This document shows, in pieces, positions 1-63,700 of a stretch of DNA of 64,000 bases. Origin of the DNA: a virus (lineage: Duplodnaviria > Heunggongvirae > Uroviricota > Caudoviricetes); IMG/VR virus record IMGVR_UViG_3300012016_000001, positions 64,001 through 128,000 of that record; one strand, written 5' to 3'. The notes under the pieces are model-generated. The model was not told the origin of the DNA. It was given only the letters and a program-made list of their open reading frames with translations, and did no database searches. Position 1 is the first letter of the stretch. Each line of letters starts with the position of its first letter. Position numbers and translations under genes: made by a program.

Positions 1-1
1 G

Positions 2-154
2 AAGAATCTTGATTCAAGAAGTGGTTATAGAGAGGCTATAAGGAAATATGGTCTTGACTTTGTAGCTAAAGTAGAAGATAGAGTAACAGCTAATGCCTAT
101 AAAGATGAGTTACCTGTAGTACTAAAAAATATGGTAGATTTAGGCCATAGATAA
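2..154 (+). CDS. 3' end of a gene running in from the left; possibly NH3-dependent NAD+ synthetase (NadE-like C-terminus)
   Basis: Frame 2 reads KNLDSRSGYREAIRKYGLDFVAKVEDRVTANAYKDELPVVLKNMVDLGHR*, with TAA at 152-154. 'VAKVEDRVTANAYKDELP' resembles the NadE C-terminal 'V.KI..R...xxHK..P' segment, and the gene directly precedes nadD. Only 50 aa are visible. Confidence 0.4.
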   Translation, partial: KNLDSRSGYREAIRKYGLDFVAKVEDRVTANAYKDELPVVLKNMVDLGHR

Positions 155-155
155 T

Positions 156-683
156 ATGAAAGTTGCTATTTATTTGGGTTCTTTTAACCCTCCTCATTAC
201 GGACATCTTACAGTTATTAATGATGCATTACAAAGATTTAATATGGACAAAGTTGTAATAGTTCCTGCTATGCACAATCCTATTAAAAAGGAAAAGCCTG
301 CACCATTTGATTTAAGGTGTGACTGGATGGAGAGAGCTTGTGAAGGATTTAATAGATTAGTGGAAGTGGATAGAATCGAGGAATCAATGATTCCTCCTTT
401 CTATTCTTATGCTACGTTACATGCAATACGTAATAAATATTGTAAAGATGAAACTTTTTTGTTAGTTGGACAGGACTTAGTAAAAGAAATCCCAAATTGG
501 ATGAATGGAGGTCAAATTCTAAAAGATTGGGATTTATTAGTAGTAGACAGAGACCCTGGTGGACCTAGTTCATCAGAATATAGAAAGTGTCCACTATTGT
601 ATAATAGTTACATTCCAACAAATATTAGAGATGAAGTATTTTATTATTATATTGAACACAATGGAAAAGAATTGGAGTTATAA
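156..683 (+). CDS. nadD: Nicotinate/nicotinamide mononucleotide adenylyltransferase (NadD family), 175 aa
   Basis: GSFNPPHYGH (HxGH nucleotidyltransferase motif), SYATL, LLVGQDLVKEIPNW (GxD...W), VVDR and SSSEYRK (SSTxIR-like), all in NadD order. Confidence 0.9.
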   Translation: MKVAIYLGSFNPPHYGHLTVINDALQRFNMDKVVIVPAMHNPIKKEKPAPFDLRCDWMERACEGFNRLVEVDRIEESMIPPFYSYATLHAIRNKYCKDETFLLVGQDLVKEIPNWMNGGQILKDWDLLVVDRDPGGPSSSEYRKCPLLYNSYIPTNIRDEVFYYYIEHNGKELEL

Positions 684-1299
684 AATAACTGAAGGAGAGC
701 ACGCTGGAAAGACTCTTTGGAGTGGTAGATACTGTGCTGTTGTAGGTTTTGTTTTTCGTAGAATTGAAGGAATTTGGTCTGTATTAGCAAATAAAAGAGG
801 TACTGGTACACCAGACTACCAAGGATATTGGAACGCACCCTGCGGCTTCCTAGAGGCTAATGAGGATGCTCAACAAGGTGTATCTAGAGAAATTTTTGAA
901 GAAACTGGGTATCGAATAAAACCAGAAAAATTCTTACAAGTTTTCACTGAGACAGATCCAGAGACTTCAAATAATGCTAATGTCTCTATAAGACACTTAG
1001 CCATAATATTTGAGCATGAATTAGGAGCTCCTATTGAGCCTACTGGAGGAGAAGAAAATGAAGTAGATGCAGTACAATGGATAGCCATAGACCAAATAGG
1101 TAATTATAAGTGGGCATTTGGACATGACAAAGTTATTAGAGACTTTTTCTATGACTATGTGTACAATCTCACTGACCATACTATGCTGACTTCTGGCGAT
1201 TTCTTAATGTTAAGTAATTCTCGCTGGTTAAAGTTCAATCCTAGAGTTAAAGATATACTTAAAGGTAAAATACTTGGAACATTTGACATATATGATTAA
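661..1299 (+). CDS. Nudix hydrolase (ADP-ribose pyrophosphatase-like), about 212 aa
   Basis: Nudix box GFLEANEDAQQGVSREIFEETG (GX5EX7REUXEEXG), preceded by WNAPCG and followed by AFGH. Start moved from 559 to ATG 661, because the upstream part overlaps nadD out of frame. Confidence 0.88.
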   Translation: MEKNWSYKITEGEHAGKTLWSGRYCAVVGFVFRRIEGIWSVLANKRGTGTPDYQGYWNAPCGFLEANEDAQQGVSREIFEETGYRIKPEKFLQVFTETDPETSNNANVSIRHLAIIFEHELGAPIEPTGGEENEVDAVQWIAIDQIGNYKWAFGHDKVIRDFFYDYVYNLTDHTMLTSGDFLMLSNSRWLKFNPRVKDILKGKILGTFDIYD

Positions 1300-1723
1300 C
1301 ATTGATTCATTAATTACTGAGGCTCGTAAGGAGCAAAATCCTATCAAACTTGAAGCTTATAAACAGGTTAAGCAAGAGTTTGTGCTTAGAATTACTAATA
1401 AGGAGACTATAACTCCTGGAGTAGAAGTTGCTGTTATTAAAAAGTTAACAGCTCATTATAGTGATCAAGCCAAACTATACCATATAAATGGTAGAGAAGA
1501 AATTGCTAATGAGTATAGAGCATATGCAAGTGAACTTGAAAAACTTCTTCCAGAAATGATGTCGGAATCTGAGATAAAAGAAAAGGTAGAATACATAATA
1601 GAACACAAGTATCCTAATCCTACTAAAAAGGACATGGGAAAGATTATTAAAGACTTTAAAGACTCTTATTCTAATGCAGATGGTGCACTTCTTGCTAATG
1701 TAGTTAAAGGCTATTTGCAATGA
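1292..1723 (+). CDS. yqeY: GatB/YqeY domain protein, about 143 aa
   Basis: All-helical protein with YqeY hallmarks: 'LEKLLPEMMSESEI', 'KKDMGKIIK' and 'ADGALLANVVKGYL'. Start at ATG 1292. Confidence 0.8.
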   Translation: MINIDSLITEARKEQNPIKLEAYKQVKQEFVLRITNKETITPGVEVAVIKKLTAHYSDQAKLYHINGREEIANEYRAYASELEKLLPEMMSESEIKEKVEYIIEHKYPNPTKKDMGKIIKDFKDSYSNADGALLANVVKGYLQ

Positions 1724-2307
1724 TTATAGGAATATCAGGTAAAGCACAAGCTGGTAAGGACACTACTGCCAGAATGATTAATTTCTTGCGTTGGTATCCA
1801 AATGCTTCATGGTGTACATATCGGGATTCTGGGCTTTTTCCATTTGACTTTGAAGATAACATAGTACATTTTGCAGATTTATTAAAGTATGTTGCAGAAC
1901 GTATGTTATCCGTCCCTGTTTATACTATGCAAAGTATGGAAGGGAAATCTATGACTTTTGATTGGTTAGATGGGATGACTGGAAGAGAGTTCTTACAAAA
2001 ACTAGGTACTGCAGTTAGAAATGAAGTACATCCAGAATTCTGGACTCGTGCCTTATTTATAAAGGAAAAGGATAATCAAAACCTTATAATTCCTGATGTT
2101 AGGTTCCCAAATGAAGTCCAAATTATAAAAGACCATGGAGGAATGTTAATCAGAATAGAACGTCCTGGTGCAGGAGCAGGTAACCATATTAGCGAAATTG
2201 CTCTTGACAATTATAAAGGATGGGATATAGTTATAGATAATGTTGGAACATTAGAGAACTTATACAATCAAGTTAAGTTCTTAATGAATAATGATCAGAT
2301 TAAATAA
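1720..2307 (+). CDS. Deoxynucleoside monophosphate kinase (T4 gp1-like), 195 aa
   Basis: IIGISGKAQAGKDT P-loop, FADLLK, GREFLQKLGT..R, IPDVRFPNE and 'NHISE' motifs typical of phage dNMP kinases. Confidence 0.88.
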   Translation: MIIGISGKAQAGKDTTARMINFLRWYPNASWCTYRDSGLFPFDFEDNIVHFADLLKYVAERMLSVPVYTMQSMEGKSMTFDWLDGMTGREFLQKLGTAVRNEVHPEFWTRALFIKEKDNQNLIIPDVRFPNEVQIIKDHGGMLIRIERPGAGAGNHISEIALDNYKGWDIVIDNVGTLENLYNQVKFLMNNDQIK

Positions 2308-2310
2308 AAT

Positions 2311-2354
2311 AAAGGGGAGCTCGGTAGAAATACCGGGTTCCCCTATTTTTTTTT
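2311..2354. terminator. Bidirectional intrinsic terminator between the convergent early and late blocks
   Basis: 13-bp stem GGGGAGCTCGGTA-GAAA-TACCGGGTTCCCC (2314-2343, two G-U pairs), with an A-rich run on the left and a T9 run on the right, lying between stops at 2307 (+) and 2353 (-). Confidence 0.85.
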
Positions 2355-5300
2355 ATTTTTGGGCTTGTAAATACGCACGATATGTATCTTTTCCTCCTCT
2401 TGCAATAGCAAAATTATTTACTATAACACTTAATGCAGTCTTGTCTCCAAAAACAAATCCCATTGTGTCCCTTATTAACTTAGTATTTGTATCGTATATA
2501 GGAGCACTATTATTTTCAAATGCCCATGATATATAATTAATAGGTCCCATTAATGAATCTGGAGATTTTTTAGCAGCTTTATAGAATATTTCAGTAGTTA
2601 AGTTAGCAGCTATAGGATTAGTCTTCATTTCTTTCTTATAGTCTGTATAAGCAGGATCTAATGCTAGTTTAAATAAGAAGAAGAAGAATAATGAACTAAA
2701 TATGTCAGTAAGAAGTTTATCCATATTAGCTTTCTACCTTGGATTAGCCAATACCCAATCTTTTGCTATCTTCCAACCATCTGTAGTTCCTATATCCCAC
2801 ATTTCTTTGACAGTGTACCATATACCTTGTACTATCTCTGGAACTTTTTCAAGTACAGGCATTCCAGTATCTTCTGTTACCATGCTTCCATCATAATTCC
2901 AGAACAGTAGATTACCAGCCTCATCACGGGCTTGTTTGTCTACAAGAACTGTATTCTATCCAAAATAGTTATTATAAATACCATTCATCCAAGTAGTATA
3001 CATACCAAAGAACCACATAATAGTTTCATGTTCAGCCATACCTTTAAGTACCTTATCATAAGCACCATAAATATTATTAGCTAAAGCTTTTATATTTTCT
3101 ATTTCTTTATCAGAATATGGACTTAATAATCCTTTTTCACCATCTGGAGTTATATCTACCATATTTTCTGGATGTTCCATATTCCATTCTCTAGCCATTG
3201 ACATATAAAGAGCTAATGCTTTTTTGTATTCTGCATTTTCTTTTGGAGTTCCATCTACAAGTGCTTTAAATCTTAAGTCTTCTTTCCAATTATATACAAG
3301 TTGGTCATCAACTATCGAGTAACCATCCCACGCTCCGTCTTGCATACAACGTGCAACGAAAAGAGTCATACGATTTAGAAAGTCAGGCCTACGTAGTGTT
3401 GAATATGCCCAGTTTCTATAATTCATAGCACCTGCACGGCCTACTTTTAAAGATTCAGTACTTGCAAGGTCTATATTAGATAGACGATATCTAGACATTA
3501 ACTTACTGAGCATATTAATATTCATGGAATTTGTCATTCCATGAGTTACTACATAAGCATATGCAGCGGATATATTTTTAGCATCTAAGTCAGTATTTAA
3601 TTTAGTAAGTGCTCTCATATAATTCTCTTCAAAACCTTGGAACGTATCCCTAAAGAATGAAACTAAATTACCTCCTAAGTTTATAAGCGTTACCTAACTT
3701 CTTGCTTTAGATAATGCTCCGGTGACTATCTATCCAAATTTATTTTTAATGGTGCTATCATACACATTAACTGTTAAGAAATCCTATATATACTTGATAG
3801 CTTCATCAAAGTCTTTTGAATTCCCAGACTCCCTTCCCATTATATGCATTTGTAGTAATAAGGCCTTAGTACCTACTAGAAAGTTATTAAGTTTTTCTGT
3901 ACGTATACTAGCTGTTAGATAGTCAATTAATAATCCTTCTAGATTAGTTTCAAAGTAATCAACACCTTGTTTATCTATATATTGCTATCTGCTTATACTA
4001 CTAAATTTTCCATCACCAATATCGAAAGGATTTCTAACAGAGAGTTGTTCCCTTTGTTCCATTAGTACTTGCCTTTCCTACTCAGATATTCCTTCTACAA
4101 ATTCATCATACCATAAATCTGGGTCTTTTAGTATTTCAGTTACTCTCTTTAGCCTATTCTTCCAAGTTTCTTTCTATAGATTCTGCTAAGTTCTAGTTCC
4201 AGAAGAAGCTCTTTTTAAAGGTACGTATAAATAATCTCTAAATCTAGGCTTTTTTAAGTCCTATGCTATTTTAGGATCATTATATCCTGTATATCCTTTT
4301 GGATTAGATAATCCATGTCTTATTTTATAAAATTCAAATAGTAGCTTTTTTAGAAATACTCTTTCAGCATCATCTAGTTCTGGGTCTTCATATGGATTTT
4401 TAAAATTCATAGTTTTCTTACCCTAATCATCAAGTTCAAAGAGATGTTCAAATACTGAATTAATATTACCGATAATAGCATTCTAAGTTAGAGTATATCC
4501 CTTTGCTTCTAGGTACTCCATAATAAAACTTCTTAGATTCTAAGAATAATATTGCTCAATCTCTGTAGCCATTGTATTAAAGGTCTATACCAAACCGCTA
4601 GTAACAAGTCGTATATTAGCATTTGAAACATTAGTACTAGTACTCATGTTTCTACTACCTATTCCTAATTTTTCCCCATAAACTAACTTCTCTCCTTTAT
4701 AATAATGGTAAGCATTAGCTACAGCAATATATAGTCTACAAGCTTTTTCTCGATCTCCATTATAGCTACTATTTGCTTTATCAATGATATCTTTTGGAGT
4801 TTTTAGTCCAGACATTAAATGTCCAAGACTTCCTCGTTCAAAAGCCTTTAATAAATCACCAAGAGCTTTAATTTTGGCTGCTCTATCCATAGTATTAGCA
4901 AGTTCAAATACTTTCTAGAAGTTTCCACTTCCGTAATCTTGTATATCTGCTTGTGAAAAATGCTAAGTAGCTAAAGCATATTCTCTCATTATTAAATCTA
5001 TAGGATTAGTAAAGTTAGAACGTCCTAAAGTATTAAAATTATTTGTAAACTTAAATTCAGGATTTTTATCACTTACTACCTATACAATAGTTGGTAAATA
5101 GTTCTATACTACATCAGATACAGAATACTATACCTATGTTCCTAAAGGACTTATTACTTTTATATTTCCTAGTTGATTATTTTGCAAGTCAAGCTTTCCT
5201 AGTATCTAATTGATTAGTAGTGTAGTTCTTAATACTTCAAGACTTCCATAAGTTCCAGGTAACATATTTTGAGCATCTGCATCTCTTTTATACATTCCTA

Positions 5301-6960
5301 GAATAGTATGTGTTCCCTTTTTCAAAGGCATTTGTACATCAGTATTATAACCACTTAGAGTAATAAAGTCTATCTAATTAGTAACATTATTTTGTATAAT
5401 AAGTACATTATAATCAATTAAATCATCCAAAATTTTCCAGTTATAAGTTCTTTTCTTTTTATCGGGGCTTTCGGTATAGTCTTGAAGGTATGGACGTAAT
5501 ATTTCTTCAAGAAATACTCCACTTCCACTTAAGCCTTGTGTTCTAGCCAATAAACGTCCAGCATCAACAAAATAACCCTTATCTCCTGAATCTTTAATTT
5601 TCTTAATAACCTATTTTAAAGTGTTTACTAGATATAAATTATTATCTTCTAATTCAGATATATGTTCTTTAACAACATCTAAAATTTCTTGGTTACTGTT
5701 CTTAGGTTTAGTGCTTTTTATATGATACTAAGTACCATTTAACACAACTTCCCAAGTTTTATCAGGATTTCTTGATATTACTAAAGGTTCTGCTTGTCCA
5801 GAGACAGGAGCGTTTTTTACATATTCGATGGCAGAACGATGTATACCTTCGCTTTTTATATTAATTCCAGGAACAATATATTGTGCTTGTTCTTCAACTA
5901 TATCAAAATCAGAAGTAGATATATTTGGAACTTCTATGTCTGACTTTACAAAGAACTTAGCTTTATTATCATATGGTTCCATGCTATATCCTCCTTTTCC
6001 AGCAGTTATATTTCTAGGGTTACCTATAATTACATTTTCTAACATACTATATGTCTAGTCATATTGTAAAGTTACAGGTACAATATGCATGTCAATTCCT
6101 TTTACAGGTATACCATTCTATCTGAGTATCTACTTTATAAAAGCCATATAATACTTATATTTTTCTATTTTTTCATTAGCCCACATATCATAAGGCTAAG
6201 TTGAAGCTTTAAAATTGTATAAGTGTAGTACTCCAGAACTATCTATTGCAAGATAATCAATATGTCCAAATATATCTTGTCCTAAAGACTCTATTGTTCC
6301 TTTTATACCAAGGTGACTTATAATTTGTGGATCTGTAAATCTATATATATTATTATTAGCAAAAGCTTCCATTTGTCGTTTTATAGATTTTATTAAGTCT
6401 GAACGTCCAGCAAATGCAGTTCCTGATATATGTTTACTTATCCCGTCTTCAAAATCAGCAGTTCTTTTTGAATATATAGCATTTATATTGTCTATTATTT
6501 TATGTAATACTACAGAATCTTCTAATATCCTTTGTCTATTAGCAATTAACTCGTCAACCTTCCGTTCTGCTTCTGCCTATGATAAGTTAGCTTTTTTCTC
6601 ATCCATTAGATTAGCTATTTCCATAGCACGTAATTCTGCAGAATCATAGCGTCTAACTAGAGGTTCTCCATCTACAAAACATCTAGGATCATCGATAAAT
6701 TCCTATGCGGACATTCCCTCAGTAGTACCTAATTCGTCCTCGGATAATGAACTATTAGTAGAAGAAGATAGTTTAATTTCATGTGCAACTTTTTCTCTTA
6801 AATCTTCGAGTTGTCTTGCTATTGTTTCTTGTCTTAGATTTTTTGCAAATACTATATCATCCATATCTGTAAACTCACTAACATCCATTTTATCTATCTC
6901 TGCTAATAACTCTACTATATTGTAGGGCTTCCCATTAAAAGTATATATACATTGTTTCAT
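2353..6960 (-). CDS. Giant virion cargo protein, 1535 aa (TAG=Gln), with an N-terminal PD-(D/E)XK-like domain
   Basis: Track fragments 2353, 2956, 4585, 5728 and 6703 share one frame; all but 2353 end at TAG. Start is MKQCIY at 6960 and the stop is TAA at 2353. Contains 'VLHKIID...GHIDYLAIDSSGVLHLYNFKAS'. Confidence 0.8.
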
Positions 6961-9857
6961 TATTCACAACTTTCTTCTATTTTCTTATCGTTTAACTACT
7001 TTTCTAGCCAATTAGCCTTTTTTCTTTGCATTTGGATTTCACCGTTACCCTTTATAAAGGATGGGTTATTCTTAAGAGTTAATGCTACGTCCCTATTAAA
7101 TCTATTCCAAAAACCTAGCATTGTAGAATCTGAATATTCCTTGAGAGGCTTATCAGCATCCTTCATATCAAATATATTGTTTTCATTTTCTTTTAGTTCT
7201 TTAGAATCTTCAAACAAAGTATTTAAATCGTACGGTAAATGTTTATTCATATGCTGTCCATACATATCTGCAAATACTTCTTCTGCAAGATCGTAGTAAG
7301 AACGATTTGGATATAATTTCCTTTTACGTTCTATAGCATTAGCTGCATATTCTGTATTTAAAGCTCTCTATAGTAAGGCTATATAAGCTTCTCTAGTAGC
7401 TGGATTAGCTTTAAGTACTCCAAGTATTAAATGAGCATATTCATGGAATGGATCTTGTACGTCAGCAGTAGAACTATTTATATATATTTCTCCGTTATGA
7501 ATAAATGCTTTTACTGTAGAATCTAATTCAAGTCCATTTAAATTCATAGCTAATTGAAGCATTTCTTCTTCGGCTTCAGTTCTCCCTTCTATAGCCTATA
7601 ATTTAGCTATTGTTTCTGGATTTGTAGCCTCTATAATATCATCATTAGATATTACATGTACTGGAACTCCAAATTTATTTTGCAAAGTAGTAGAAAGAGT
7701 TTCCAAAAATTTTATGATTGGAACTCTAGGAGAAGTTTTTGCTTCCTAGGGAGTAGTTTTATCAGTTTCTATAAAGTAATAACGTCTTTGACCTTCATTC
7801 TTAGTTTGTACAGATGACTTTATATAATAATATTTTACTGGAGCTTTCTTTATATCTGTTACTATAGCTCTAAATACATCTCCATTTTCTCTATTATATT
7901 GTATTCTTCCATCTTCTCCAACAAAATTCATTCTTTGGTTCACTTCACTTAGAAATATGGCAGCTTTTTCTGCAGTATCTATATTATTTATAATGTACTC
8001 TTTTACGTCAGCTCCGACATTTAAACCATTTATATAATCATAAAAATCCCACAGAGTTTTTTCTAGTAATATGGATTCATTATTTAACATATTATCAGTA
8101 CTAACAACCATATCTATAGAGGTTATTATGCTTTTAGCTGGAATAAATCCATCACTTAAAAATGTACTACCCTCCCTTGTAGTGAGCTTTCCATTCTTTT
8201 TCCTTACCTTTAAATCAAATAAGCCGTAATTTTTTAATATTTCTCTACTAGATTTAATAGCAATAGCTTCTTTTGCTTCTTCTAAGGTATGATAAGATGT
8301 ACCATCTGAATAAGGAGTTAATATACCCTTAGTAAAGAAAAATGCCTAAACTCCATTTATTGCTCCTGAATATATTGTATATCCATTTTGTGTTTCTATT
8401 TCACTAAACTAACTAATAGTGTCATATCCAAGTCCGTATACACTTTTTATTGTTGGATATGCACTTTCTAGTTTTAATATATTTCCCTTTATTTTTTTCG
8501 CTTTGTATCTAATAGGATTAGTGGTTGGACCTAAAAGACTTTGTAACCAATTAATAAAAGATTCGCCTAACCATTGTTCTTCGTCCTAATCGATATCCTC
8601 ATTCAGTCTATTTACAAAAGATTTTTCTAATTCTGAGAGTTTGCTAAATTTTTCATCAGTTATAGCTGCTTTTATAGCCTCTTTTACTTCAGAGCCCTCT
8701 TTGTTTATAAATTCTATAAACTTTTCTGGAGAGTTAATATCCAATAGCTTTAATACTTCTGGTATATCAGACTTAAGTACTTTAGAATAATACTATTTTA
8801 AATTTACTTCTGCAGAGTTAAATCCGTAAGTGAATCTTTTTACAAATTCATTTACTAACGGGTGGTCATAACCTTTTAACTTATGCTCTCCATTTAAAAC
8901 TAAATATATATCTTTAACAAATGTTTTTTCTTCATCAGACAGTCTACTAAATTCACTAGTAGCTATTAAATCTTTGAATCTTTCTTTTATGTATTCCTTA
9001 TTTTTAGCTCTAAATTCATTGAATTTATCTATAGTATCTATTCTAAGTAGTTTTGATACACTAGGTAGTTTCTACTAAAATGTATTACTGTAATAATCAT
9101 CTACTTTAATATCACTAGAATTTAAACTATCCATAAATGTAGTCAGTAATGGATCTCCTTGTAATTTAGGTATACTATTTAAAACGTTAGCTACATCTTC
9201 TAATACAAGGAATACACTACGTTTACCAGGCTCTTTCTTAATATCCTTATATTTCTTTTTATTATTTAAGTAATCACTTACTAAATCCCTTTTAGTTGGA
9301 AGATCTTTACTTTTAAGCTTTTCAAAAACTTCATCTAATTCATTAACTAAGTCTTCATTAAGAGAATCTATAAAATTCTCTGATAATCTTTCTCTTGTTG
9401 TTAAATATTTTCCTAACTTAATTACAGAATTCTTATCACCCTTGATTACAAATATTTCATTTCCTTTTGTATCGATTACTCTACCTTGAACTCCATTTTT
9501 AGTACTTCTATCTAAATTATCTAGAAGCAAGATAGGAACATCTACATCAGGAAATTCTATATCTGGATACATTGCTTTTATATAGGCAGTATTAACATTA
9601 GGGATTAAATCTTTAGCTTCTTGTATGTCATTATAAGTAACATCTTTAATAACTGCACTAGTAGAGCTCATGTAATTAATAAGATTATCTACAAATGTTT
9701 TCCATTCAGGACTGTTTTTTAATATCTTATTTAGATTTTGTTGAAGATTATCTACGAGAAAGTTTCCTTTCCCGTAGATTTCTTCATCACTAAGGTTAGA
9801 TATAGTTATACCTTCACCTTCTTTAGTTCCATAATTTATCTGAATAGTACAAGTCAT
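6960..9857 (-). CDS. Virion cargo protein with zincin metallopeptidase-like domain, 965 aa (TAG=Gln)
   Basis: Fragments 6996, 7368, 7746 and 9075 are in frame. HEYAH at 7431-7445 and EEVFAD at 7266-7283. The TAA at 6960-6962 overlaps the next ATG (TAATG). Confidence 0.8.
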
Positions 9858-12800
9858 ACACAGTTTATTTTGAATTGAATAGTACTCGTTCTCATTAGTT
9901 CACTAAGTACAGCTGCTGGATTATTAGCGTTTAATAACATCTTTATTTGAGCTAAGTATGTAGAATAAGGATTTCCAAGCAAGAAATAACCTCTCTAAGC
10001 TGCAAACCTACCTAATCTGTCTAAGTTAGTTTCTCCGGAAACAGTTGGTAACATGGATGGAATTTCAACATACTTATATCCTTTACGCATATAATATCTA
10101 GGAACTCCATCTTTTATCATAATTACTACTGGAGCAGTCTATCCTTCTAAACTGCTAACAGTCTTTGCTTGAGCTAAAAATAAGTCTCTAGCAGTAAAGT
10201 TGAATAATTCATCAACATCTTCTCCTTTGTGGTCCATTTCTCCTATATACTTTAAATATCTATTTATTAAGCTATTTCCTTTTCTATCAAACTCATTTAT
10301 AAAGTTCTCAAATGCCTTAGTTAGTCTATCAGAACCATATCTATTGTTATTTACAACTAAATTGTATAAAGCAAACCAATCAGCTAGGTTATGACTTCCA
10401 AATTCAATATTACTTAACTATCCTAATGCTTTAGAATACTTAGCTAACTGAATAGTAGTATACGCTGAATCTGCGCTCATATTAATATTAGTTTTCCATA
10501 TAGGTACATCTCCATCCATATCCCTAGTTAAAGATTGTATAAATTCATTATTCCTTAATTGAACATTAATAGCACTATCTTGGAATAGATTACCGTTCTA
10601 CAATCCAGGAATTACTACATTTTCAAAATAGTATTTAAAACTAGCTATAGATTCTTCAGAATTTATATTTAAAGTGCCACTATTAGTCTACCTAACTAAC
10701 TATCTATTACTATTAAACAACCTAGCTCCTTTATTTATAGGAAGTTTAAAACTCTCTTTTTCGGTTATAAATTTAGTAATAATAAGTTTAGAAGCAAACT
10801 TTAGTATACTTGAATAAAGATCTGTATCAATATATGTATTTGGATTTTCACTTCTTATCTTTCTTATAGCACTTTGTAAAATTCTACTCTTTGTAGAGAA
10901 AGCATTTACAGTACATTCACTTCCAAGAAGCCTGAACATATTACTAAAGTGTGGTATATAGTCAGCTGCTGCAAATATATTTACACTATGCTTTATATAA
11001 TTATAATATTCACTAGTAAGTCTTCTATAACTATATTCTTCTCCTAGAACAGGATTTCCTTTATCATCAGTTATTATTTTTCCAGTTTCATCTACTTTAG
11101 GTAATCTAACTGTAGCATCTTGTAACCATTTAACTGGATCAAAATTACCATTAGCTACTAACATGTACTTCTCTACATTCTTAGAACCTACCTTATTTAC
11201 AAAGGCATCTAGATTGAATGTTCCATCTTGGCTAACTAATTTAACTGCTTTTTCCCTTTGTTCTATATTGCTTCTAAAACGTTGTAAAGCACTCTCCAAG
11301 TCTTCTGTTTTACCAAGTAATCCTTGGTTAATACTCAACATTTTACCAAAGTTACTAAATTCATTAGCCCCTTCAAATACTTTTTCGAACTCGTTAACAT
11401 CTGCAAGCATATTATTAATCTATGCAAGAGACATATTATCTGGAAGAGCCTATCCAATTATAGTTTCTTTATTTGGAGCTAGATCCTTATCTTGTTGTAC
11501 TATAGATTCTCTTAAGTTAGTTAAATAATTCTTTAGATCTCCAATTACTTTTGCGGGTTTAGTATCATTACCAGTAAACATATTAGGATTAGATAATCTA
11601 TCTATTAAATCTACAGCATCACTTGTCATAAATGCTACTATATCATTAATATCAAATCCTAAAGACATTAAATAAAGATAACATTTAGCTAATTTACTTC
11701 CAGCATTAATCTTAGCTAGAATAAGCTCTTTAGCATTATCAGTTGCAGCAGAAATCATCTAACTATTAATGTTGTCAGTTTTAATATTAGGATTTAGCTT
11801 ATTTTTTATTAGGCTATTTATAAAGGTTTCTACTGCTGTTTCTCTTTCTTTTCTCTTCTCTGGAGTATCAGTTTCGTCAAATATAGCTTTTATACCTTCT
11901 ATATTTATATCTGGAAGCATTCTTATCGATGTATCTACAGGTTTGAAATCATCTGAGCTTCTACCAATAATACGCTTAGTATTAAATTCAAACCTTGCAA
12001 ATTCTAAATCAGAATGTGGTGTTACTATTAACTCTCCATTTTCCACAGTATAATCAACCCCTTCTCTAGCTTTTTTGATTACATCATTTACATAAAAGTT
12101 CCACATAAACATAGCCTTTTGTCCAGTAGCTGCAATAGCAATAACACTTTTACCTGTCATATTTTGATATTGCATTTTATAAACTGCTAATGGATTAAGT
12201 AATGTAATTCCTAGTGCTTCTTTACCTTTAGGGCTATTATCGGATGCGTCTCTTAAATCTTCCATTTCTACGGGAATGTAAGAATCAGCTGCGTTTCTAA
12301 CGTGTTGGATAGTATTCTAAATATGGGAAGATACAAAGTTACGTAGAGCCATAGGTCTAACTCCAACTGGAATCTATACACTGTGATGTCTGTTTAAAAC
12401 TTCTCTTACATTTTCTATGTAATTGTCTTTACAGTATATCTTAGTATTATCACCTAATTTATTAAGGATGTCCGCGTAAAGATTTATTTTATGTACTCTA
12501 TCATTAATTTCTTGTTGTTCATTCTCATACTTATGTATTTTTAGCCTATCTTCTATTTCATGCAACTATTGAACCTATGCAGTAATATCTAGTCCTTCTT
12601 TTGGATCTGAAGTTCTTGTAATAACTACATCAGGATTAGGCATAGATAAGTACTCAGAAGCTTTAATAGTTTCAATACTAGTATAATCAAATAGACTACT
12701 CCATCCTATATATGAACCATTGTCATCAAATGCAAGCCCCATTATATAAGCTTTATCAATATCATAGTCAGAACCTTGTAACCAAGTCTACCAGTGAGAA

Positions 12801-15800
12801 ACATATGCCTAGTTACTTCCTTCCCCAGAAAAGCCTACAAGCGTCATATTCATAAATGACTGTAACGTTTGAGCTGGAATACGAGAAGCAGTGAATCCTG
12901 TAGAGCGCATAAAAGATGCTTTTCTCTTTTTACTGAGTTTATTTATATACTCCTTAGTATAAGATTCATTTAAGTCTTTAAGTCCTCCCTTTTTAAATAC
13001 AAGAGCGTCTCCTTGCTAAACCATCTTGAAGTTATCAGAAATCTTAATTTTTCCTCCAGATGCTTCAGGTATTTGATATATAATACCATCATATAGATTA
13101 GTTAAATAACTACTTAACTCAGGATCATACAAGAACTCATCTGCCATTTTTGACATGACGTTCTTTAGTCTTCTAGTTCTAGAAACACTGACTCTATCAT
13201 TATTAATTGTCATTAGTTCATATGAGTCAGCCTAATATATATCACGTATAATTTTTCTAGTAAGATTAGTAATACCTTTATCTATATCAGCTGCTTTTTG
13301 TTGCTCAGTTTCTTTAAAACTTTGCATAGCTCTCTACATTTCTTGGGTGTTTATATTAAAGACTGCATGTCTAATATGTTTACCCTTAGAATCTTGAGTT
13401 ACTCTATGTTTAGTTACAAATTCAATATACTCAATTACTTCTCCAGAAGGATTAACTGAGAATCTACCTTCTATTACTTTGTCTCCCTATTTATATACTT
13501 TATTTACAGAATCATAAGTTAAGTCTTTTCTAACAATATCCCTACCTACTTGGAATAATTTCCTTCCATCATCATCCATTGCAAAAACATCATTAACTAC
13601 AATGTCATTGGCTCTTCTATGATTAGTTTCTCTATGAAGCTTACCCCAGGATGAAATTTTATATTCTGTTCCTTCTATAGAACTACTAGATAAGTCCCTA
13701 TCTATAGATATATAAGTATGTCTTCCATTACCTTTCATCATTATTAAGTCATAGAAGTCCTAATTAATAGCGCTAGAACGAACTTGTCTATCTTTAGAAG
13801 CAAAGAAAGACTTAGACATATTTAGTACTTCTGCTAAAGACATATGTTGGTTAATTCCAAACTTTGTCTGATATATATTAGACATAATAAGTTCAGCAGG
13901 CGTATTATGTAATACTATATCATAGGTCTTTTCTCCAACTGTCCACTTTCCTTTATCTAGTTGGTCAAGTAACTACTATGTCTTAGGATTCTTGTTATTT
14001 TTAAAGGCTTCTATACATTCGTCTGTATCAAATATATTTGTTACTCTCTGACGTCCTTGTTCATCTGTCCATTCCCACCAAATCTTTGTTGGAGCTAGAT
14101 TACGTGCAATATGTAGATTCTTTCTAAAACCTGTTATAGTAACAGGAATGCCTAGTTTTTTCTATACATATGCTCTTGGATCAGCTTTAAAGTTATAATA
14201 GTCTTTTATTTCGTTTAAAGTAACATCTAACCAATGTTCTTTACCTTCAGCATCCTTATATCTAATTCCTATATTATCAGTAGGCATAAATGTTTCTAGA
14301 TAATATTTAAAATCAGGTAATTTGCCAGGTTCATTAGGAATACTATAATAATATTTATCCTTATTATAATCATCAGTAACTTTCTAAAGAAAAGCTTTTA
14401 CTATTTTGGAATTAAAGATATGAGCGTCAAATCTATTAGTAGAATCTAAATATAACTACTCAAAGTATTGATGATATGGATGTGCTAATACTTCTTCTAC
14501 TGCCTCTTTCTTTTCTTCTTCATCTTCAGCTTCTTCTGCAACTGATTGTAGATAAGCATACTCTTTATATGCTTCAAGAGCCTCTCTCTTTATATCATCA
14601 TACTAATAAGTTCTGCCACCTATTTCGTATATTGTTGCAACTTCATATCCTGGAGATATAACAGCTCCTAATCCTGGATATTTTTTACGTATTGATTTTT
14701 TTGTTATAACTGAAGCATAAGTAGACAAAATACTACTATAGATATTATCATCACTGAATGGAATTTTAAATAAATCCATATCATGCGTACTAGTTAGATT
14801 AAATTTAGCTTTAATTTGACCTAAAATAGCCTCAGCTAGTCCAGACTTACCACTACCCATTTTTATGTTGTCAAGAATAGTCTTTCCTACAATATCATAT
14901 AAGGCATCTCTAGCCTAAATTTTAGCTTGAGCAATATGCTATTTAATTGTTTCTATTTCAGATACTAAATTAGAAGTATTAAGATCAGGATATTCCTTTT
15001 TAGGAAACTCATCTTCGAAAGCTTTAATAAGACTTTTCTAGTCATAATCTAATACTCTTTCTAATAGTGCAGTTACTTTTGTTTCTTTGTCTAGTCCTAT
15101 ATTTTTCTTAAACTATTCAATAAAAGGAGCTTCCTCAATAAGAGTTCCTGCTTTCTAATAGGCTTTAATAGCATCCATTTCGATCTTAGCCTCTGCAAGA
15201 GCGATTTGACCGAGAGCTTTATAAATACTTCCCACATAATCATGTACACGTCCTCCGGCATCTAGTGCTGATATAACCTAAGAGAATTCAGTCATTTCAG
15301 CTTCATCAGCTTCATGGTCAGCATCCATTTGAATACCATAATAACGTGTATCCATAGTTATATAGTCTAAATTTTCATCATTATAATATCTCTATGATGA
15401 ATTTCTATTACCAGCCCCATTTTTAATGGCACTATTATTACATAGATAGTCTATCATTAAATATTTAAGAGGTTGTACGTAGTTATCCTAGTTAAGTGCT
15501 GCATATTTAGTGAGACCTGCCTTTCTAATAGTTACATTATTTATAATGTTAGCTACTACATAGTTAGATGCTTCAGAAGCTCTTAATTCTTTTTTAGACT
15601 GTCCTGTAGAATCAACGACTTCTGTAATAGATTCACTATCTATGCCTCCAAACATTTCATGTAATTCATAAATACTATTTACTGTATGTAAGCCTCTGTC
15701 CAATTCCTCAAAAGCACTTAGTATATGGTCTTCTCTATAATGATTACCCTACATGTCAAAGTAATGATAAACCTTTTGCTATATATCTGGAGCTTCTCCG

Positions 15801-18800
15801 CTTTCAGTAACTATTCCCTCTATAGTATAATATGCAGACCTAGGTCTAATATTACTTTTTTCCTATACAGTTTCAAAACCAGCATCAGTAATAGCATAAT
15901 GGTTTCCTTCTGCTCCCATATAATAAAGCATTGTATTTCCATCAGTAATAGTACTAAATTTTATAGCTTTATCACTAGTATGCCCAGCTAAAGCGAATAT
16001 GTTTCCATCGAATTTAGTATACCCTTGTTTAACTGGTCTGCCATCACTCATTAATATTGGTTTCTTATTTATATCAGTTACGATTTCTCCAGTCTAGTCA
16101 TATAAAGCATCACTAATGACTTTTGACCAACTTTGGTTTGTCATTTTCATGAACATTTTACGCATAGATACAGGAGAACCTTCAGACTGTCTCATTAGAG
16201 TATTGGTCATAGTATGCGCTGCAAACTTAACAAGAGAAGCAGTCATATGTTCACCATCATAGTAATGCCATATAGGTTTCTTAATTGTACCTACTTCATT
16301 TTCTTGTAGTGACCAGTTTTCTAAAATAGATGTAATAGGATTTATCCAAGCTGAGCCATCATGTGCATCTATTCCATCTGATTTTCCAGTAAAATTAAAC
16401 ACTGCTGCTTTTATATCATCCATTACAGCTACTTTCATATGTGTACCTATACCCCTTATAGTACCCTGCATATAGTAACGCATAGTTGCAGGTATAATTA
16501 CATTACGTTTTAACTGTGCTCCTTGCCCAGCTGCCTCTACATAATAAAGTTGCTATTGTCTTACTTCTTCAAGTTCTTTAGCATACTTAGGTATTCTACT
16601 TATTAATTCTTCTAAATCACTGAATGACATACTCTCAAAGAAATAATCAGGATTTATTCCTCTTTCTTGAGCCATTTGTTTAGCTACTGGAATAATTTCG
16701 GTATTAACAGCTAAATCGTTATTTATTCTTTTTCTTATTTCTTTACCAAGGTTAGTTCCAATAAGTTGTTTATTCTTGTGATTTATTTCAGAACCAGTAA
16801 GTAGCATTCTCATACTATTATTTAGATAACTATTTACTAAGAAATACCTTTCTAAAAGAGGATTAAGCTACATATCTGGCTTTATATCCTGTACTTTTGT
16901 TATAGCATTACCTTCAGAGTCTTTAGCTAAAATTATATTTCCATCACTAGTTGCCCATCTTCCAGAGTAAGTAATTTTACTAAAAGCCATACCAGTAGGA
17001 GTATCGTCTTTTATTTTTCCATAAGAATCTATCTTCACTTTTTCAAATTTAAAACCTGTTTTTATTAAGTCAGTTAAGAACTTAACTTTTTCAGTCATTA
17101 GGCGTTTTCTAAACTCTTTTGGTGTGTATAATTCTAGTGCGTAATGTGCAAGAGACTCATTAAAAGCTAAAAAATTATGCTTTTTACCATTAGAATCTTT
17201 AGGCGAATTTGGTCTAAAGTGAGTATCTAAGTAGATGTCTACTTTAGCTGCTTTAGCTAAATTTATAAGTACTTTTTCTGCATCTTTACCTTCAGATATT
17301 GCTTTTTCAGAAAGTTGACGTAGTTTTTTGTCTACCTATTTTACTAACTATTTTATATTGTCTTTATTATATGTAATTAACTTTGTACTTGAATCAACTA
17401 CATAAGCTTGATCATATAAAGGCTATAAGTCAGTAAATATTTTAGCATAGTCACCTAATACATTTTTTAGTATAGCTCCATAAGCATATCCCATTTCATG
17501 TGCATACTTAGATTCTATATCAGATAATTCTGCTTGCATTAAGTCAAGTCCATTTATTTTAGTTTTAATTCTATAATTAATGAACTTTGTCTTATCAGAA
17601 TATGTAGTAGGTTGTATTATTATATAAGGACTATCTTCGATTAAAGGAAGAATGAACTTGTCCATTATAGCATGATAATAAAGTTCTCCTTCTTCCATAT
17701 TCTTTACCTATTTAGTAGCACCATTAGGTAATCTGACCTCGGTATCAATTACAGTACCAATAACTGCTGTTGGGTCTTCTGCAAATATATTATTATTTAA
17801 AGGTTGTCCAGCAGTAATATAAGGAGCATGCTGTGCGTCTTGTAATAACGTCTATAAGTTAGAGCCCATAAATGCTAATCCATAGTTAGGTAGACTATCT
17901 CCTAGTTGATTCTTGGTATTAGCAGTAGATATTTCTCCTGACATTATGTGTTTTATATCTATATAATTCTATAACCAATTTTGCCCACTAGTTAAAGTAA
18001 CTAGGGTATTACCTAATTCAGAAAGCTTCCATATTTCTTTCCATGAGTAATCACTTTGAGAAATGTCAGAAATTTTAAATACTGGATATAGATTTTTATC
18101 AGCTATAAATCTAGCTAAATCTGTTCTGTTATATATTGTACCTGGATTCTCTAATTCTTTTTCAAATTTTTTATGAATGTCATTTACAACTAATCCTCTA
18201 GTAGCAGTAGCTAAAGCATTAGCTACACCTGTAGGATATTTAGATTTAAATAAGAAATACTCTAGTAGGCCGTTTTCATCTAAAGTAAAATGTGTTCCTG
18301 CTAAGTCATCAATAAAACGAAGTACATTCATAAAATCTGCATTAGTACCCTCTTGGTTATCAATTATAGCTTTACGTCTTTTATATGTAGAAACATCATG
18401 TTTATTAAGAAAAGAACCGAGACTAAGAAATTGAGATTCGTCTTTACCCTTGACCTCTATTGTAATATTCTTATCTTCTGAAGCTTTACTTAATAAGCCA
18501 TACTTATTACTAGCTAAAGACTCCATTCCATTTACTCTAGTCTGAACTGTAACTCTTACAGTAGTTCCATTAATATCTATAGTATAAACAGATTGAGCTT
18601 CGTCTACGTTAGAAGTAAATGTATACGGAAAATCTGAGTCAGTACTAATATTATTTCTATTTACAGAGTTTAAATGATTAAATAATTCTCTCTTACTAGA
18701 GTACTTTCTTTTAATTCTAGTAACTAATTCACCATTATCCACTGTAGTTTCAAGATAATTCATGCTAGTAGAAGATAATACTTGGGCAGATAAACTATCT

Positions 18801-59100: not shown

Positions 59101-60746
59101 ATCTATACTAGGTCATCTCCTTCCTGCACTATTCCCTACATATCTCGACTTCTACTTCCATGTCTATTATAGAAATCCTAGTTAATATGGTCTTCTTCTC
59201 TTGTTATGGTTGGATTTAGATTATCATTATAAATAATTGTAGTAGATTTATCAAGTATACCTTCAGCTAACTATATAACATATATAGAATCTTTTAACTT
59301 ATTACATACTACAGCATCATAATATTTAATACTATTTCCAGTAAATTTCTAACATCTTAATAAATCCCCAGGTAGAAATATAGGAAGATTATCAGTATCA
59401 AACTATACTAAATACAAATTTGTATCATACACTACAGGAGTGTTACTTAATGCTTCTTGTGAGAAATATTTATGATAAGTCTTAACATATTTAACATCAT
59501 ATATATCTTCTCTATTTGCGCCATTAGAATCATTATACCAATTTATTCCTTCCTTTATTACTGCTATAGGCATAACTACATCAGTATCGAAATATTGGTC
59601 AAATAAGTTATCATAGCTAAATATAGAACTAGCTTCGTCACTCTATAAATCTTCTTCTCTAAAAGAAAAAGTTCTTCCTGCGTTATTTACATCCTATATA
59701 AAGCTGGATACCTTAGACTAATCATTACAAAGAAATACTTTTAGATTTTTGTAATTGTAGTCGCTTTTAGCCTATCCCTATCCTGTATTTGAAGACATCT
59801 AGTCACTAGACCAATTATCTATGCTTACTCCATTATGTGTCACAATGAGTCCTTCATGGTTCTGTAATCCTAAAATAGCTGATTTTATAGCAGTTTCTGA
59901 TGAACTAGATGGGCTGATGGACTGCCATATAGTCTCTGCATCTGCATTTATTACTTTCAATCTGCAAGTATACTTTACCTTACTTGCATTAGTTACCCAT
60001 AATGAACCATTAGTAGCTCTTACTTTATTAACTACGAGTTCATATACATACATAGCTTTACGCACTACTATGTAATCTATAGTAAGTGTATTTGTTTGCC
60101 CATCTATTCTCCATCCATATCCTCCAAATCCACTTGCAAAGTCTGGAGTTCCTACACTTCCTGCATGTAAGGAATCTCTATAGTGTAAAGTATTAGCTCT
60201 ATAATATACAGGGTGATTAAAATAAGTATTATTATTAAATTGCCAAGAACCTCCTATTACTTCATTCTTATTTTTCTAAGCAAAAGCACTACTAGGAAGG
60301 CCTTCAAGGTACTAAGCATTAAGATTTTTAACAAGAGAAGCAGAAATTACTCTAAGAGGAGGAGTTCCAGACTAAGTATTTATAGTTAAAGCTCCAGTCA
60401 TAGTATCTCCAGTCTTCTTTACATATCTAGTATCCTAAGTACTTACACTTATTAATTCTACTAATTCTCCATCAACCTTTATATAGAGTATATCAGAAGA
60501 TTTATCATAGATAAAACTTCCATCATTTATGTTGAGTTCATCTAATTCTTCAAGTCCATCTATAATTATTGTCTTATTAGCAATGGATTCTCCAGAGCTA
60601 GATGTAAGACTAGAGATGATTTCATCCAATGTCTAGGCTTTGTTTCGGGACTTAATATAGATCTTGCCTAGAGACTCTAATACTAAGTCAGCCGAAACAT
60701 CACCTACAACATTTACGTTTTTACCAAATAAAGTATCTGTTCTCAT
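56178..60746 (-). CDS. Large tail / tail-fibre-associated protein, 1522 aa (TAG=Gln)
   Basis: Fragments 56580 to 60435 are in frame; start MRTDTLFGK at 60746. Contains 'FASGFGGYGW', 'VRKAMYVYELVVNKVRATNGSLWVT', 'KARFGRLDGI...GFGLYGENVFLTG' and 'IEAKSGTIGGFKI', typical of phage tail proteins. Confidence 0.7.
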
Positions 60747-63700
60747 TGATTGTCTCTCCAATTAACAGGTAGCCATGTTATATCAGAATGTACGCTGATA
60801 AAGTCATTAGCATTATTAATATTAGATTTAGAAACTCCTTCAATATAACCAGCCCATGATATGATATAATTACCTAACATAAGAGGAATAGTTCCAGATA
60901 ACAAGGAATTATTAAAGAATGCACTTGATACATCAGATAGATATGGATGAATCTCTGCATTTTCTGGCTAGAACATTGTAGAAGAAACATGTAATAATCC
61001 TCTAGTAACATATAAAGTATTAGTAACCTAGAATAAGGATGATATATCTCTAAGTTCGTGATTACTAATAAATGTATCCGCACTTACTTGAGGATATAAT
61101 ACTAACTATCCATTTATATAGGATGTACTATCATCATTTCTAATAGAATCTCCAAACACAGGACTGTCATATAGCTATATATCTGATAACATTCCATGTA
61201 CACTTCTTAGATTTGGTAGATAGTGTAAATTAAGATTCATATCTATTCCAGCTTCTACTGTGATTCCTCTAAATGTTTCGTTCAGACTGGTAATGTTAGG
61301 AGTATATCTAAATAAATCTGGAGGTAATTTGATTCCTCTTGATGCTTGTGCAGAAAGATGCTAAGAGTCATACTTATAACTACTAAATCCTATAAATGGA
61401 CATATTTGTAAATCCTAGAATACGTTTTCTAACTCAGTTATTTCTGTGTTATGAATAAATAACTTCATAGGTAATCTACCTTTTAGTCCATCCATTGGTC
61501 CATTTTCCATTGTTGTGAATCCATCACTTCCTGAAACAAGTGTATGAGTTTTGTAACTTAATCCTTGTAATGCATTCTTTAAGGTACAACTAGGAGCACA
61601 TGAGTAGAATAAGTCTGCAGGGAATATGTAATTCTAATAACAATTAGAATATCTATTAACTGGACCTTGTAATACTTGCTATTGCTGTATATCATAATCA
61701 TACACTTCAGAATCGAATGAAGAAAGACTTCTCCAAGACTCTGGCCAAGGATTTCCATCTATATATAATGGATCAGCATTATTTATATCAGAATAATCTA
61801 AACTAAAATATATAGGAGTACCAGGATTAGTAATTACTACGTCATTCCAAGTAGTTCTTTGTTGTCTTTCTCCTTTAAAGTAAACTTCATTCTCGCTTAT
61901 TGTTCTATCCATAGTATATCCTAGCTTGTAACACCCAGTAAATACATTCTGTAGATTAAGAATATTATTATTAGAAGTTCTAAAGAACTTATAAGGTATA
62001 GCTCCAAATACTCCAGAACTATCTAACATATTAGAGAAGTCAGTTATAGGATTACTTAAAAATCCTTCTCCTAATAACTTAATATTTAGATATTTATCTC
62101 CTTTAAATAGATTAGACACATTAATTAGTTTAGTGCAATCTCTAAATAATTCCTAAGATGGGAATTCATAAACTTGTCCATTGTTTCTTATAGTCTCATT
62201 AGAGAAGAATCCACTTACACTTAATAAATTAGAACATCCACTAAATATATTATTAGGAATTAAACTATTAGTAAAGTATATTCCAGACAATACATTAATT
62301 AAGGACGTTGGATCTAGGTTCATAAACATATTTCCATAAGTACTTAAATCCCCTAATAATTCGTCATTAGCACTCATAGAGAATGGGCCATTTATAATAG
62401 TAAAGTTAGGAATAGTATAATAACCATCAGTATTAGTTATACCTCCAAATACATTTGCATGTATTTCTCCAACTAATTTGACTCCAGTGTAAAGTGAATT
62501 ATTCAATGTAGTAGTAGTAGGCGTTTTTCCATTCGGATAATGAAATAAATAATCGAAAGTTATAGTACCTAACTATATACTATCTATAAGCATCTTTATA
62601 TTTGTACAACCCTAGAACATTCCTTTTGGAACTACATTGGTTAAGTTCTGTAAGTTCAAGAAAAAATCTTTAGAATGTAAATATCCATCACTGGGATTAT
62701 CTGTATCTGCACAACTATGTAATAATGTACAGTTAGAGAACATATAATCAGCTTCAGTTATAGAAGTATTACCCTTAAATGCATTATTGTCTATCCATTC
62801 AAGTTGTGTTCCTGCAAATGCATAGTTTGCAATACTTAAATGTGGTAAGTAATCTAGAATTCCTGCCCCACTTTCAGTTGTAGAATAGAAAACTCCAGAT
62901 ATTCCTGTACCTTCACAGAATGATGTAATATCAGTTACATTTGGACATTTATTAAATAAATCTCTCCATATAACTACGCTAATTGAAGAGCATCCCTAAA
63001 ACATTTTATTTAGAGTAGCAACATTCGCCTATAACTTTGACATTACATATCTAAAATCTTGTCCAGTAACTCCGCTTCCTGAGAACATTTCAGAATAAGA
63101 AGATAAATCAGGATTAAAACTTATATTACAGAAATTTCCAGGAATATAGTCATTAGTAAATACTACTCCTGTATAGTCAGTGTTTAATTTTAAATTTAGA
63201 CATCCTTGAAATACCTAAGTACCACTTAATTCAAAATTGCCTACTAGTGCTCTTAAACTAGAACATCCTTTAAATGCTCCTCCAGTCAACTAAATCTTAT
63301 GGTTCTGTATATTTGGACATTGTACTTCTACTAAAGCGTAATTATTAGAAGCAATTATACTAGAAAGATTTGTATGTCTAGTTAAATCTAGTATTGTAGA
63401 TATATTTCCTCCATAGTTAAATGCAGTAATAGTAGTATTAGCTATATTTAAATTTTTAAGTGATGTCCATTGTGAAGAAAATTCTATATTATCTGCAATA
63501 GTATTACTTAAATTAACTGTTTCTAGATTCTAAGCACCTTGTAAGAATATATCTAAATTTGGATTATTTTGTCCTTGAATATCAAATATTTTCAGTCCTT
63601 CACATGCAGATATAGTTATTTGTTCTAATGGACTAATTAATCTACCATTGAATATACATGTTAGAGATTCTAATCCTGGACAGTTTGTTAGTATTACTCT

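Follow-up and report, generated by a model that had tools for sequence, protein, structure and literature searches.

A predicted four-step salvage route from nicotinamide to NAD+, with ADP-ribose-handling partners, in an operon of a crAss-like gut phage

Depletion of nicotinamide adenine dinucleotide (NAD+) is a widespread form of bacterial defence. Bench experiments have established three phage routes for rebuilding NAD+, and the four-step route through nicotinate is not one of them. NARP1 (Adps and Namat) and NARP2 (Nampt and Nmnat) were described by Osterman et al. 2024 (10.1101/2024.02.11.579819), whose text does not mention a nicotinate route, and NARP3 of phage Bas30, made up of a PnuC-like transporter and a NadR-like enzyme, restores NAD+ against Sir2-HerA (Sci Adv 2026, PMC13464706). 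Two rebuilding routes other than that through nicotinate defeat Thoeris, DSR2 or Sir2-HerA (10.1101/2024.02.11.579819; PMC13464706). Genes for the nicotinate route were reported by Li et al. (Microbiome 2024, PMC11662467). Of 668 gut jumbo phages in their study, 174 encode a complete salvage or Preiss-Handler pathway; the authors also describe clusters of pncB, nadD and nadE in phages of gut Bacteroidota, such as Kuafu_71 of the Kuafu clade, and propose that such clusters counter host defence. In the literature searched, nothing relevant turned up on NAD genes of crAss-like phages, on a "NARP4" or on a phage nicotinamidase. Here we describe a chain of NAD genes that straddles the start of a 64,000-nt window (bases 64001–128000) of a single IMG/VR virus record, IMGVR_UViG_3300012016_000001, whose 194,529 bp are rated 100% complete by CheckV.

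The source is a TAG-recoded crAss-like gut phage of 194.5 kb, and the chain lies in its early/replication block. We put a probability of about 0.8 on the reading that the chain is a working line of salvage from nicotinamide to NAD+ with clearance of ADP-ribose, which would maintain NAD+ levels in the infected cell, the most plausible threat being NAD+-depleting defences. The identities of the genes, their intact active sites, their conservation and the lack of other routes in the genome carry this reading. The start of the window falls in the 3' half of the co-directional chain, so that the initial annotation had seen only a 50-residue NadE-like tail, which it rated as a weak call, followed by tightly coupled NadD and Nudix genes, and had proposed from these a deamidated route distinct from NARP1 and NARP2. 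The upstream flank (bases 48001–66500 of the record) bears this out. The tail is the C-terminus of a real NadE of 272 residues, whose full gene starts 665 nt before the window, and PncA and PncB are encoded just upstream; nampt and prs were not found in the genome. From the window alone the call was indeed weak, the tail giving only E 0.047 to the NAD+ synthase model. NadD and the Nudix enzyme lie where they had been placed and keep their family matches, and the coupling is as tight as claimed, with a gap of 1 nt between NadE and NadD and an overlap of 23 nt between NadD and Nudix. The contrary case, in which the upstream gene is not an NAD synthetase and Nampt is present, did not occur.

Catalytic residues of the encoded enzymes were read against solved structures and across 61–73 homologues from related phage contigs, among which no frameshifts or active-site losses were seen. 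NadE matches NAD_synthase (PF02540) over its full length with E 1.4e-38 and scores 123 bits with TIGR00552 nadE, for which the cut-off is 63.65. Its alignment with solved NH3-dependent NAD+ synthetases runs the whole length of the protein, and the best PDB match (3p52, E 9.6e-25) covers the C-terminal part that lies inside the window. The SGGIDS P-loop of NadE (S30–S35), which is the SGGxDS loop of ATP-pyrophosphatases, is kept in 72 of 73 homologues, and a glutaminase domain is absent from its 272 residues. PncB scores 344.8 bits with TIGR01514 (cut-off 269.55), both PF04095 and PF17767 match, and H213 and H219 are invariant in an alignment of five sequences. PncA has the isochorismatase fold with nicotinamidases as best PDB matches (1ilw, 3pl1), and its triad D9/K98/C149 and metal site D49/H51/H68 are present in all 73 homologues. 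Another cysteine, C142, was considered as the nucleophile of PncA and rejected, being variable (55 C, 16 V, 2 A); the alignment with 1ilw leads to the invariant C149.

The adenylyltransferase is, by its sequence, of the bacterial NadD type. It matches the Pfam family CTP_transf_like with E 5.6e-16 and TIGR00482 with E 3.9e-31 (108.6 bits against a cut-off of 112.45), whereas the NadR and archaeal NMNAT models reach 1e-7 or worse against 1e-31 for the NadD model, and all 17 PDB matches are NadD or a close homologue. Both motifs, GSFNPPHYGH and SSSEYR, are present; H14, G16 and H17 are found in 65 of 65 homologues, and S139 and R143 in 63 of 65. Nicotinate mononucleotide (NaMN), as opposed to nicotinamide mononucleotide (NMN), is the predicted substrate. 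For every gene of the chain the ratio dN/dS is 0.08–0.41 when compared with the five nearest relatives, values that are only qualitative because of saturation at synonymous sites (dS about 1 or higher; undefined for two pairs).

The whole genome contains one gene each of the NAPRTase family (PncB), the CTP_transf_like family (NadD), the Nudix family and the ADP-ribosylglycohydrolase (ARH) family. Nampt and Namat are absent from it, since the only NAPRTase-family gene, which is also the sole PF04095 match, scores as PncB. Pribosyltran_N, the model used for Prs and Adps, had no match in the genome in a search whose control matched 14 of 14 genomes, and searches of the genome for PnuC (PF04973), a macrodomain, an NAD-dependent ligase (LigA) and SIR2 likewise gave no match. 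The search for PARP was uninformative, its control having matched 0 genomes. As no prs is present in the phage, phosphoribosyl pyrophosphate (PRPP) must come from the host. With PncA, PncB, NadD and NadE present and no other route found, the only encoded route to NAD+ is the four-step deamidated one from nicotinamide. Judged from its gene content, this route is the full Preiss-Handler pathway and is none of NARP1, NARP2 and NARP3, so that the distinction from the first two drawn in the initial annotation stands.

The Nudix protein carries a box (G62–Y84) that fits the consensus GX5EX7REUXEEXGU, and its start, MxKN, is common to 22 relatives. Residues G62, E68, R76, E77, E80, E81 and G83 of the box, as well as P100 and a WAFxH motif, are invariant in 61 of 61 homologues. 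When a profile of 23 phage homologues was compared with the PDB, NrtR-type proteins came first (2fml, E 1.6e-13; Shewanella NrtR 3gz8, E 4.3e-11; 3gz5, about 1e-10), and the Francisella NadM-Nudix ADP-ribose pyrophosphatase 2qjt followed at 9.5e-9, near the NudJ and NUDT1-type matches in rank. The invariant WAFxH aligns with the AFDH of the NrtR-type proteins. The AlphaFold model (pLDDT 91.2) has 2fml and 3gz8 as its top Foldseek matches in the PDB, the latter being the Nudix domain of NrtR with ADP-ribose bound. On this profile and model evidence the enzyme is probably an ADP-ribose pyrophosphatase, by a small margin over other Nudix enzymes, and its proximity to the ADP-ribose-binding NrtR/NadM-Nudix group fits the proposed recycling of ADP-ribose. 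A role as an NrtR-like regulator was rejected, given the complete catalytic box and the length of most relatives (158–185 aa), which is too short for a DNA-binding domain. A PADLOC match to the candidate system PDC-S07 (E 1.9e-10) was taken as generic Nudix resemblance and was not used. Residues 169–212 of the protein (window 1165–1299) form a 45-aa helical C-terminal extension that is present in the closest relatives only, the other homologues ending at 158–185 aa.

Only one feature of the locus stands out as less ordinary, an ARH3-like gene inserted between pncA and pncB. The best PDB matches of its product are ARH3 proteins (6g1p, E 1.2e-18), with DraG reaching only 4.5e-5, and the acidic Mg2+-binding motifs align with those of ARH3, namely the DD of YSDD, GDTDT and the E of the GVPYE stretch. 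Of the five nearest relatives, four (L007–L010) have the gene between PncA and PncB, and one (L006) lacks it there. In contig L085 (L085:15806-16621) it is found downstream of PncB at a distance of 6.6 kb, and in the unrelated 462-kb phage LR756500 (L166:7455-8216) it stands beside PncB and a metallophosphoesterase on one strand. The link to NAD genes is not obligate, because small phages of Porphyromonas and Bacteroides, which gave no PncB match, carry homologues at about 40% identity. From its gene context, the protein could serve in counter-defence, opening the O-glycosidic linkages of ADP-ribose that host immunity makes and passing linear ADP-ribose to the Nudix enzyme, yielding PRPP and ATP for salvage, an idea to which we give little credence. 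A close conceptual parallel is RyDEP, a glycosidase that cuts the ribose-ribose bond of 2'/3' cyclic ADP-ribose (2'/3'cADPR) and has been found inserted in a NARP1 operon (10.64898/2026.05.28.727677); the phage ARH would be its non-homologous counterpart.

The pathway that we propose is drawn from the established activities of these families. PncA would deamidate nicotinamide to nicotinate, PncB would combine nicotinate with PRPP to give NaMN, NadD would adenylate NaMN to nicotinate adenine dinucleotide (NaAD), and NadE would amidate NaAD with ammonia to NAD+. The Nudix enzyme would most likely split free ADP-ribose into AMP and ribose-5-phosphate, which host Prs and kinases could return to the pools of ATP and PRPP, and the ARH3-like enzyme may contribute ADP-ribose released from O-glycosidic conjugates. 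The outcome would be NAD+ rebuilt from both leftovers of NADase action, nicotinamide and ADP-ribose. The operon would be expressed together with the early replication and nucleotide genes, and its purpose would be to sustain the NAD+ pool during infection; the substrate preferences, the expression and the role in defence are inferred.

Such modules are common among uncultured phages. In IMG/VR, 401 viral stretches encode a PncB relative; they were reached with an alignment of five PncB sequences, and a locus search with the single NadE protein gave one relative only. In the best 80 of these 401 stretches, the genes found within 8 kb were PncA (74 loci), NadE (73), Nudix (70), NadD (66), the metallophosphoesterase (62) and ARH (5), counts that are not independent because many of the contigs come from one metagenome. 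The prevailing order is ThyX, metallophosphoesterase, PncA, PncB, NadE, NadD, Nudix, YqeY and deoxynucleoside monophosphate (dNMP) kinase. PncB is rare in GenBank phages, where 13 records carry it, among them contigs from human faeces, huge phages and two cultured jumbo phages, Atu_ph07 and Phosso. Some related modules carry extra genes (L074:7156-7986; L015:4545-5450; L012:9161-9733) that have no counterpart in the phage described here. One of these is a Prs-like protein with a phosphoribosyltransferase domain just 5' of PncB, a weak match (E 1.4e-4) below the Pfam cut-off, and the others are radical SAM proteins; they suggest richer or hybrid versions of the pathway.

In weighing these assignments against their alternatives, we consider it rather unlikely that the Nudix protein is a house-cleaning hydrolase of (d)NTPs or NDP-X compounds, or a NudC-like enzyme that removes NAD caps, which would stand beside NadD through synteny and not through a common function. 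In favour of such an enzyme, the best PDB matches of the single sequence are NudJ/YmfB and DR1025, about equal in rank to NrtR; a fold search of Swiss-Prot places NudJ, DR1025, Arabidopsis NUDT24 and NudC close to NrtR and does not separate the subfamilies; and dNMP kinase and ThyX are among the neighbours. ADP-ribose pyrophosphatases have a marker proline about 15 residues after the Nudix box, and P100 of the phage enzyme is at +16. The first rank of NrtR-type proteins with the 23-sequence profile, the WAFxH alignment and the ADP-ribose-bound Foldseek match argue for an ADP-ribose pyrophosphatase instead, the downstream motif of NudC-type enzymes is absent from the protein, and the Nudix gene, besides accompanying the NAD genes in most loci, adjoins PncA or PncB where the order differs (L012, L014, L074). 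As to the purpose of the operon, it might be a general auxiliary metabolic module that supplies NAD(P) for phage nucleotide synthesis and replication, for example for NADPH-dependent ThyX, and that is useful in any host cell and not specific to NADases. We regard this account as doubtful, and the metabolic and defence readings are not mutually exclusive. The conserved block in which PolA, ThyX, the metallophosphoesterase, the NAD genes, YqeY and dNMP kinase stand together speaks for a metabolic module, as does the finding that NARP2 of KVP40 raised NAD+ even without a defence system (10.1101/2024.02.11.579819), and Li et al. favour a redirection of NAD+ metabolism to phage needs (PMC11662467). 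Against it, no NAD+-consuming phage enzyme came up in the searches of the genome for LigA and SIR2, and the companions Nudix and ARH handle ADP-ribose, which points to the breakdown products of NAD+ and away from redox demand. Partners that process ADP-ribose, and the failure to detect a phage consumer of NAD+, tilt the balance towards defence; the setting among nucleotide-metabolism genes and the doubling of a host pathway tilt it towards metabolism. Further considerations also weigh against a salvage line that serves in defence: the position of the operon between ThyX and dNMP kinase fits a general metabolic role equally well; Bacteroides carries its own NAPRTase-family gene, which the phage copy duplicates in function; NadD falls 4 bits below the equivalog cut-off of TIGR00482, and its preference for NaMN is putative; the literature searched yielded no experiment on a Preiss-Handler cluster of a phage; and, with three ATP-consuming steps and PRPP drawn from the host in the absence of a phage prs, the route is a slower emergency response than NARP1 or NARP2.

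A reading of the NAD genes as passengers, captured from hosts not long ago and without a role under selection in the phage, deserves almost no credence, even though the PncB tree shows traffic with hosts. In this tree (FastTree, midpoint root), in which some of the "genome" contigs are possibly mis-binned phage, phage sequences interleave with those of gut Bacteroidales (Bacteroides, Phocaeicola, Parabacteroides, Alistipes) in one clade apart from other Bacteroidota, with at least five changes of label. At this coarse level the sequences show that phage PncB is of the gut Bacteroidales type and has been exchanged repeatedly with hosts. The clade of six phage sequences that includes the PncB of our phage, however, has a long branch of 0.66 and belongs to a group of 12 that are all viral, and the nearest cellular sequences are only about 50–54% identical (Bacteroides, Phocaeicola and other Bacteroidales; 47–48% for Alistipes). 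The order of the module is kept across phage contigs of about 60–190 kb, its genes recur in phages of up to 413 kb, the catalytic residues are invariant, and dN/dS is well below 1, all of which speaks against unselected passengers. As an observation on the data set, the 410,106-bp contig L111 (ONIZ01000001.1, 'uncultured Firmicutes bacterium RUG343') equals the PncB-bearing jumbo-phage contig L084 (IMGVR_UViG_2799112330_000002) exactly in length, and probably represents a phage genome that was assigned to a bacterial metagenome-assembled genome.

The features of the chain are compiled in Table 1. Open reading frames of window positions 1–2307 (+ strand) were called under table 11 and comprise an open-ended frame at 2–154 followed by frames at 156–683, 559/661–1299, 1274/1292–1723 and 1720–2307. 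All neighbouring genes from the metallophosphoesterase through the dNMP kinase either overlap, by 4–23 nt, or are separated by 1 nt. The YqeY-like gene overlaps the Nudix gene by 8 nt and is found downstream in 38 of the 80 related loci. ThyX, 1.4 kb upstream, and a family A DNA polymerase (PolA) lie further upstream on the same strand.

Table 1. Genes of the NAD chain, in coordinates of the whole record (G000:C1), of the retrieved upstream flank (L001) and of the window.
Feature	Record (G000:C1)	Flank (L001)	Window	Strand	Match
Metallophosphoesterase	59920-60537	11920-12537		+	phrog_547
PncA nicotinamidase	60534-61103			+	PF00857 E 3.5e-12
ARH3-like ADP-ribosylglycohydrolase	61100-61915	13100-13915		+	PF03747 E 5.5e-40
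PncB nicotinate phosphoribosyltransferase	61912-63093			+	TIGR01514
93-aa open reading frame	63077-63358	15077-15358		+	no family
NadE, NH3-dependent NAD+ synthetase, 272 aa	63336-64154	15336-16154	2-154 (last 50 aa)	+	PF02540, TIGR00552
NadD-type nicotinate-mononucleotide adenylyltransferase, 175 aa	64156-64683		156-683	+	TIGR00482
Nudix hydrolase, 212 aa	64661-65299		661-1299 (ATG start 661)	+	PF00293 E 3.7e-17
YqeY/GatB-like domain protein			1292-1723	+	PF09424 E 9.1e-15, phrog_1460
Deoxynucleoside monophosphate kinase, last gene of + block			1720-2307	+	PF21448 E 1.4e-17, phrog_139 E 7.7e-42

No gene of the NAD operon contains an in-frame TAG codon or ends on a TAG stop. The late genes on the − strand are open only when TAG is read as a sense codon (Gln), which gives a single frame of 1535 aa with 30 TAG codons at window 2353–6960 and another of 965 aa with 10 TAG codons at 6960–9857. 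The 93-aa frame between PncB and NadE has a basic, Pro/Lys-rich N-terminus and no match in Pfam, PHROG or NCBIfam, and is kept in the five nearest relatives at 48–59% identity with dN/dS 0.18–0.41. The metallophosphoesterase lies directly 5' of PncA with an overlap of 4 nt, and in some relatives (L015:6516-7211; L012:6244-6936) a second, different Metallophos protein occupies the same position. It is given no role in the pathway because its matches are confined to the uncharacterised Aquifex protein aq_1665 (1xm7, a structural-genomics protein), which is its best PDB match, and to the broad family phrog_547.

As a discovery the locus adds little, since its gene set is already in the literature and is common in IMG/VR. 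The initial proposal of a new, third reconstitution pathway does not hold, pncB-nadD-nadE clusters having been published (PMC11662467) and the label NARP3 having been taken by PnuC with NadR (PMC13464706). What the locus offers is a clean and complete example from a gut Bacteroidales phage lineage, with all four steps, no competing route and partners that handle ADP-ribose, and on these grounds it would be a sensible choice for the first test of function. If the role in defence is true, NAD+ reconstitution would extend to gut crAss-like phages.

Of the NARP systems, NARP2 of Vibrio phage KVP40 (Nampt with NatV, a bifunctional Nmnat-Nudix protein) likewise makes NAD+ from nicotinamide with PRPP and ATP, and the pairing of adenylyltransferase and Nudix that is a fusion in KVP40 takes the form of overlapping genes here. 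NARP2 uses two amidated steps via NMN, whereas the route described here would use four, via nicotinate, NaMN and NaAD, and has no Nampt. NARP1 also recycles NADase products, and the accessory ADP-ribose enzymes of its extended operons (the phosphatase Adpp and the glycosidase RyDEP) parallel the ARH of our phage. Its Prs-like Adps and Nampt-like Namat are both missing here, however, and this phage probably degrades ADP-ribose to AMP and ribose-5-phosphate, whereas NARP1 pyrophosphorylates it. NARP3 imports nicotinamide riboside; here there is no PnuC and the sole adenylyltransferase is of the NadD type, which sets the locus apart from NARP3.

The chromosomal pncA, pncB, nadD and nadE genes of Bacteroidales and other bacteria, with their NrtR regulators, belong to the same families, and the phage PncB falls inside the gut Bacteroidales clade. 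In the phage, all four steps are packed into one operon, and the phage Nudix protein, whose catalytic box is complete, is without the winged-helix domain by which NrtR binds DNA. The closest likeness is to the NAD-jumbo phages of Li et al., large gut phages assigned to Bacteroidota hosts in which the same enzymes are clustered and for which a role against Sir2-type NAD+ depletion was proposed on the support of annotation. An NAD-dependent ligase is present in 90 of the 174 NAD-jumbo phages, whereas LigA and SIR2 were not found in this genome. The text of Li et al. mentions phage pncA genes and does not mention a Nudix gene, while in our phage PncA, an ADP-ribose-type Nudix enzyme and an ARH3-like hydrolase are encoded in one chain. 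NAD-jumbo phages are defined by a genome of more than 200 kb and at least one complete NAD+ synthesis pathway; the pathway is complete here and the genome, at 194,529 bp, is smaller, but the size limit is a matter of definition and the module is therefore of the same kind as theirs.

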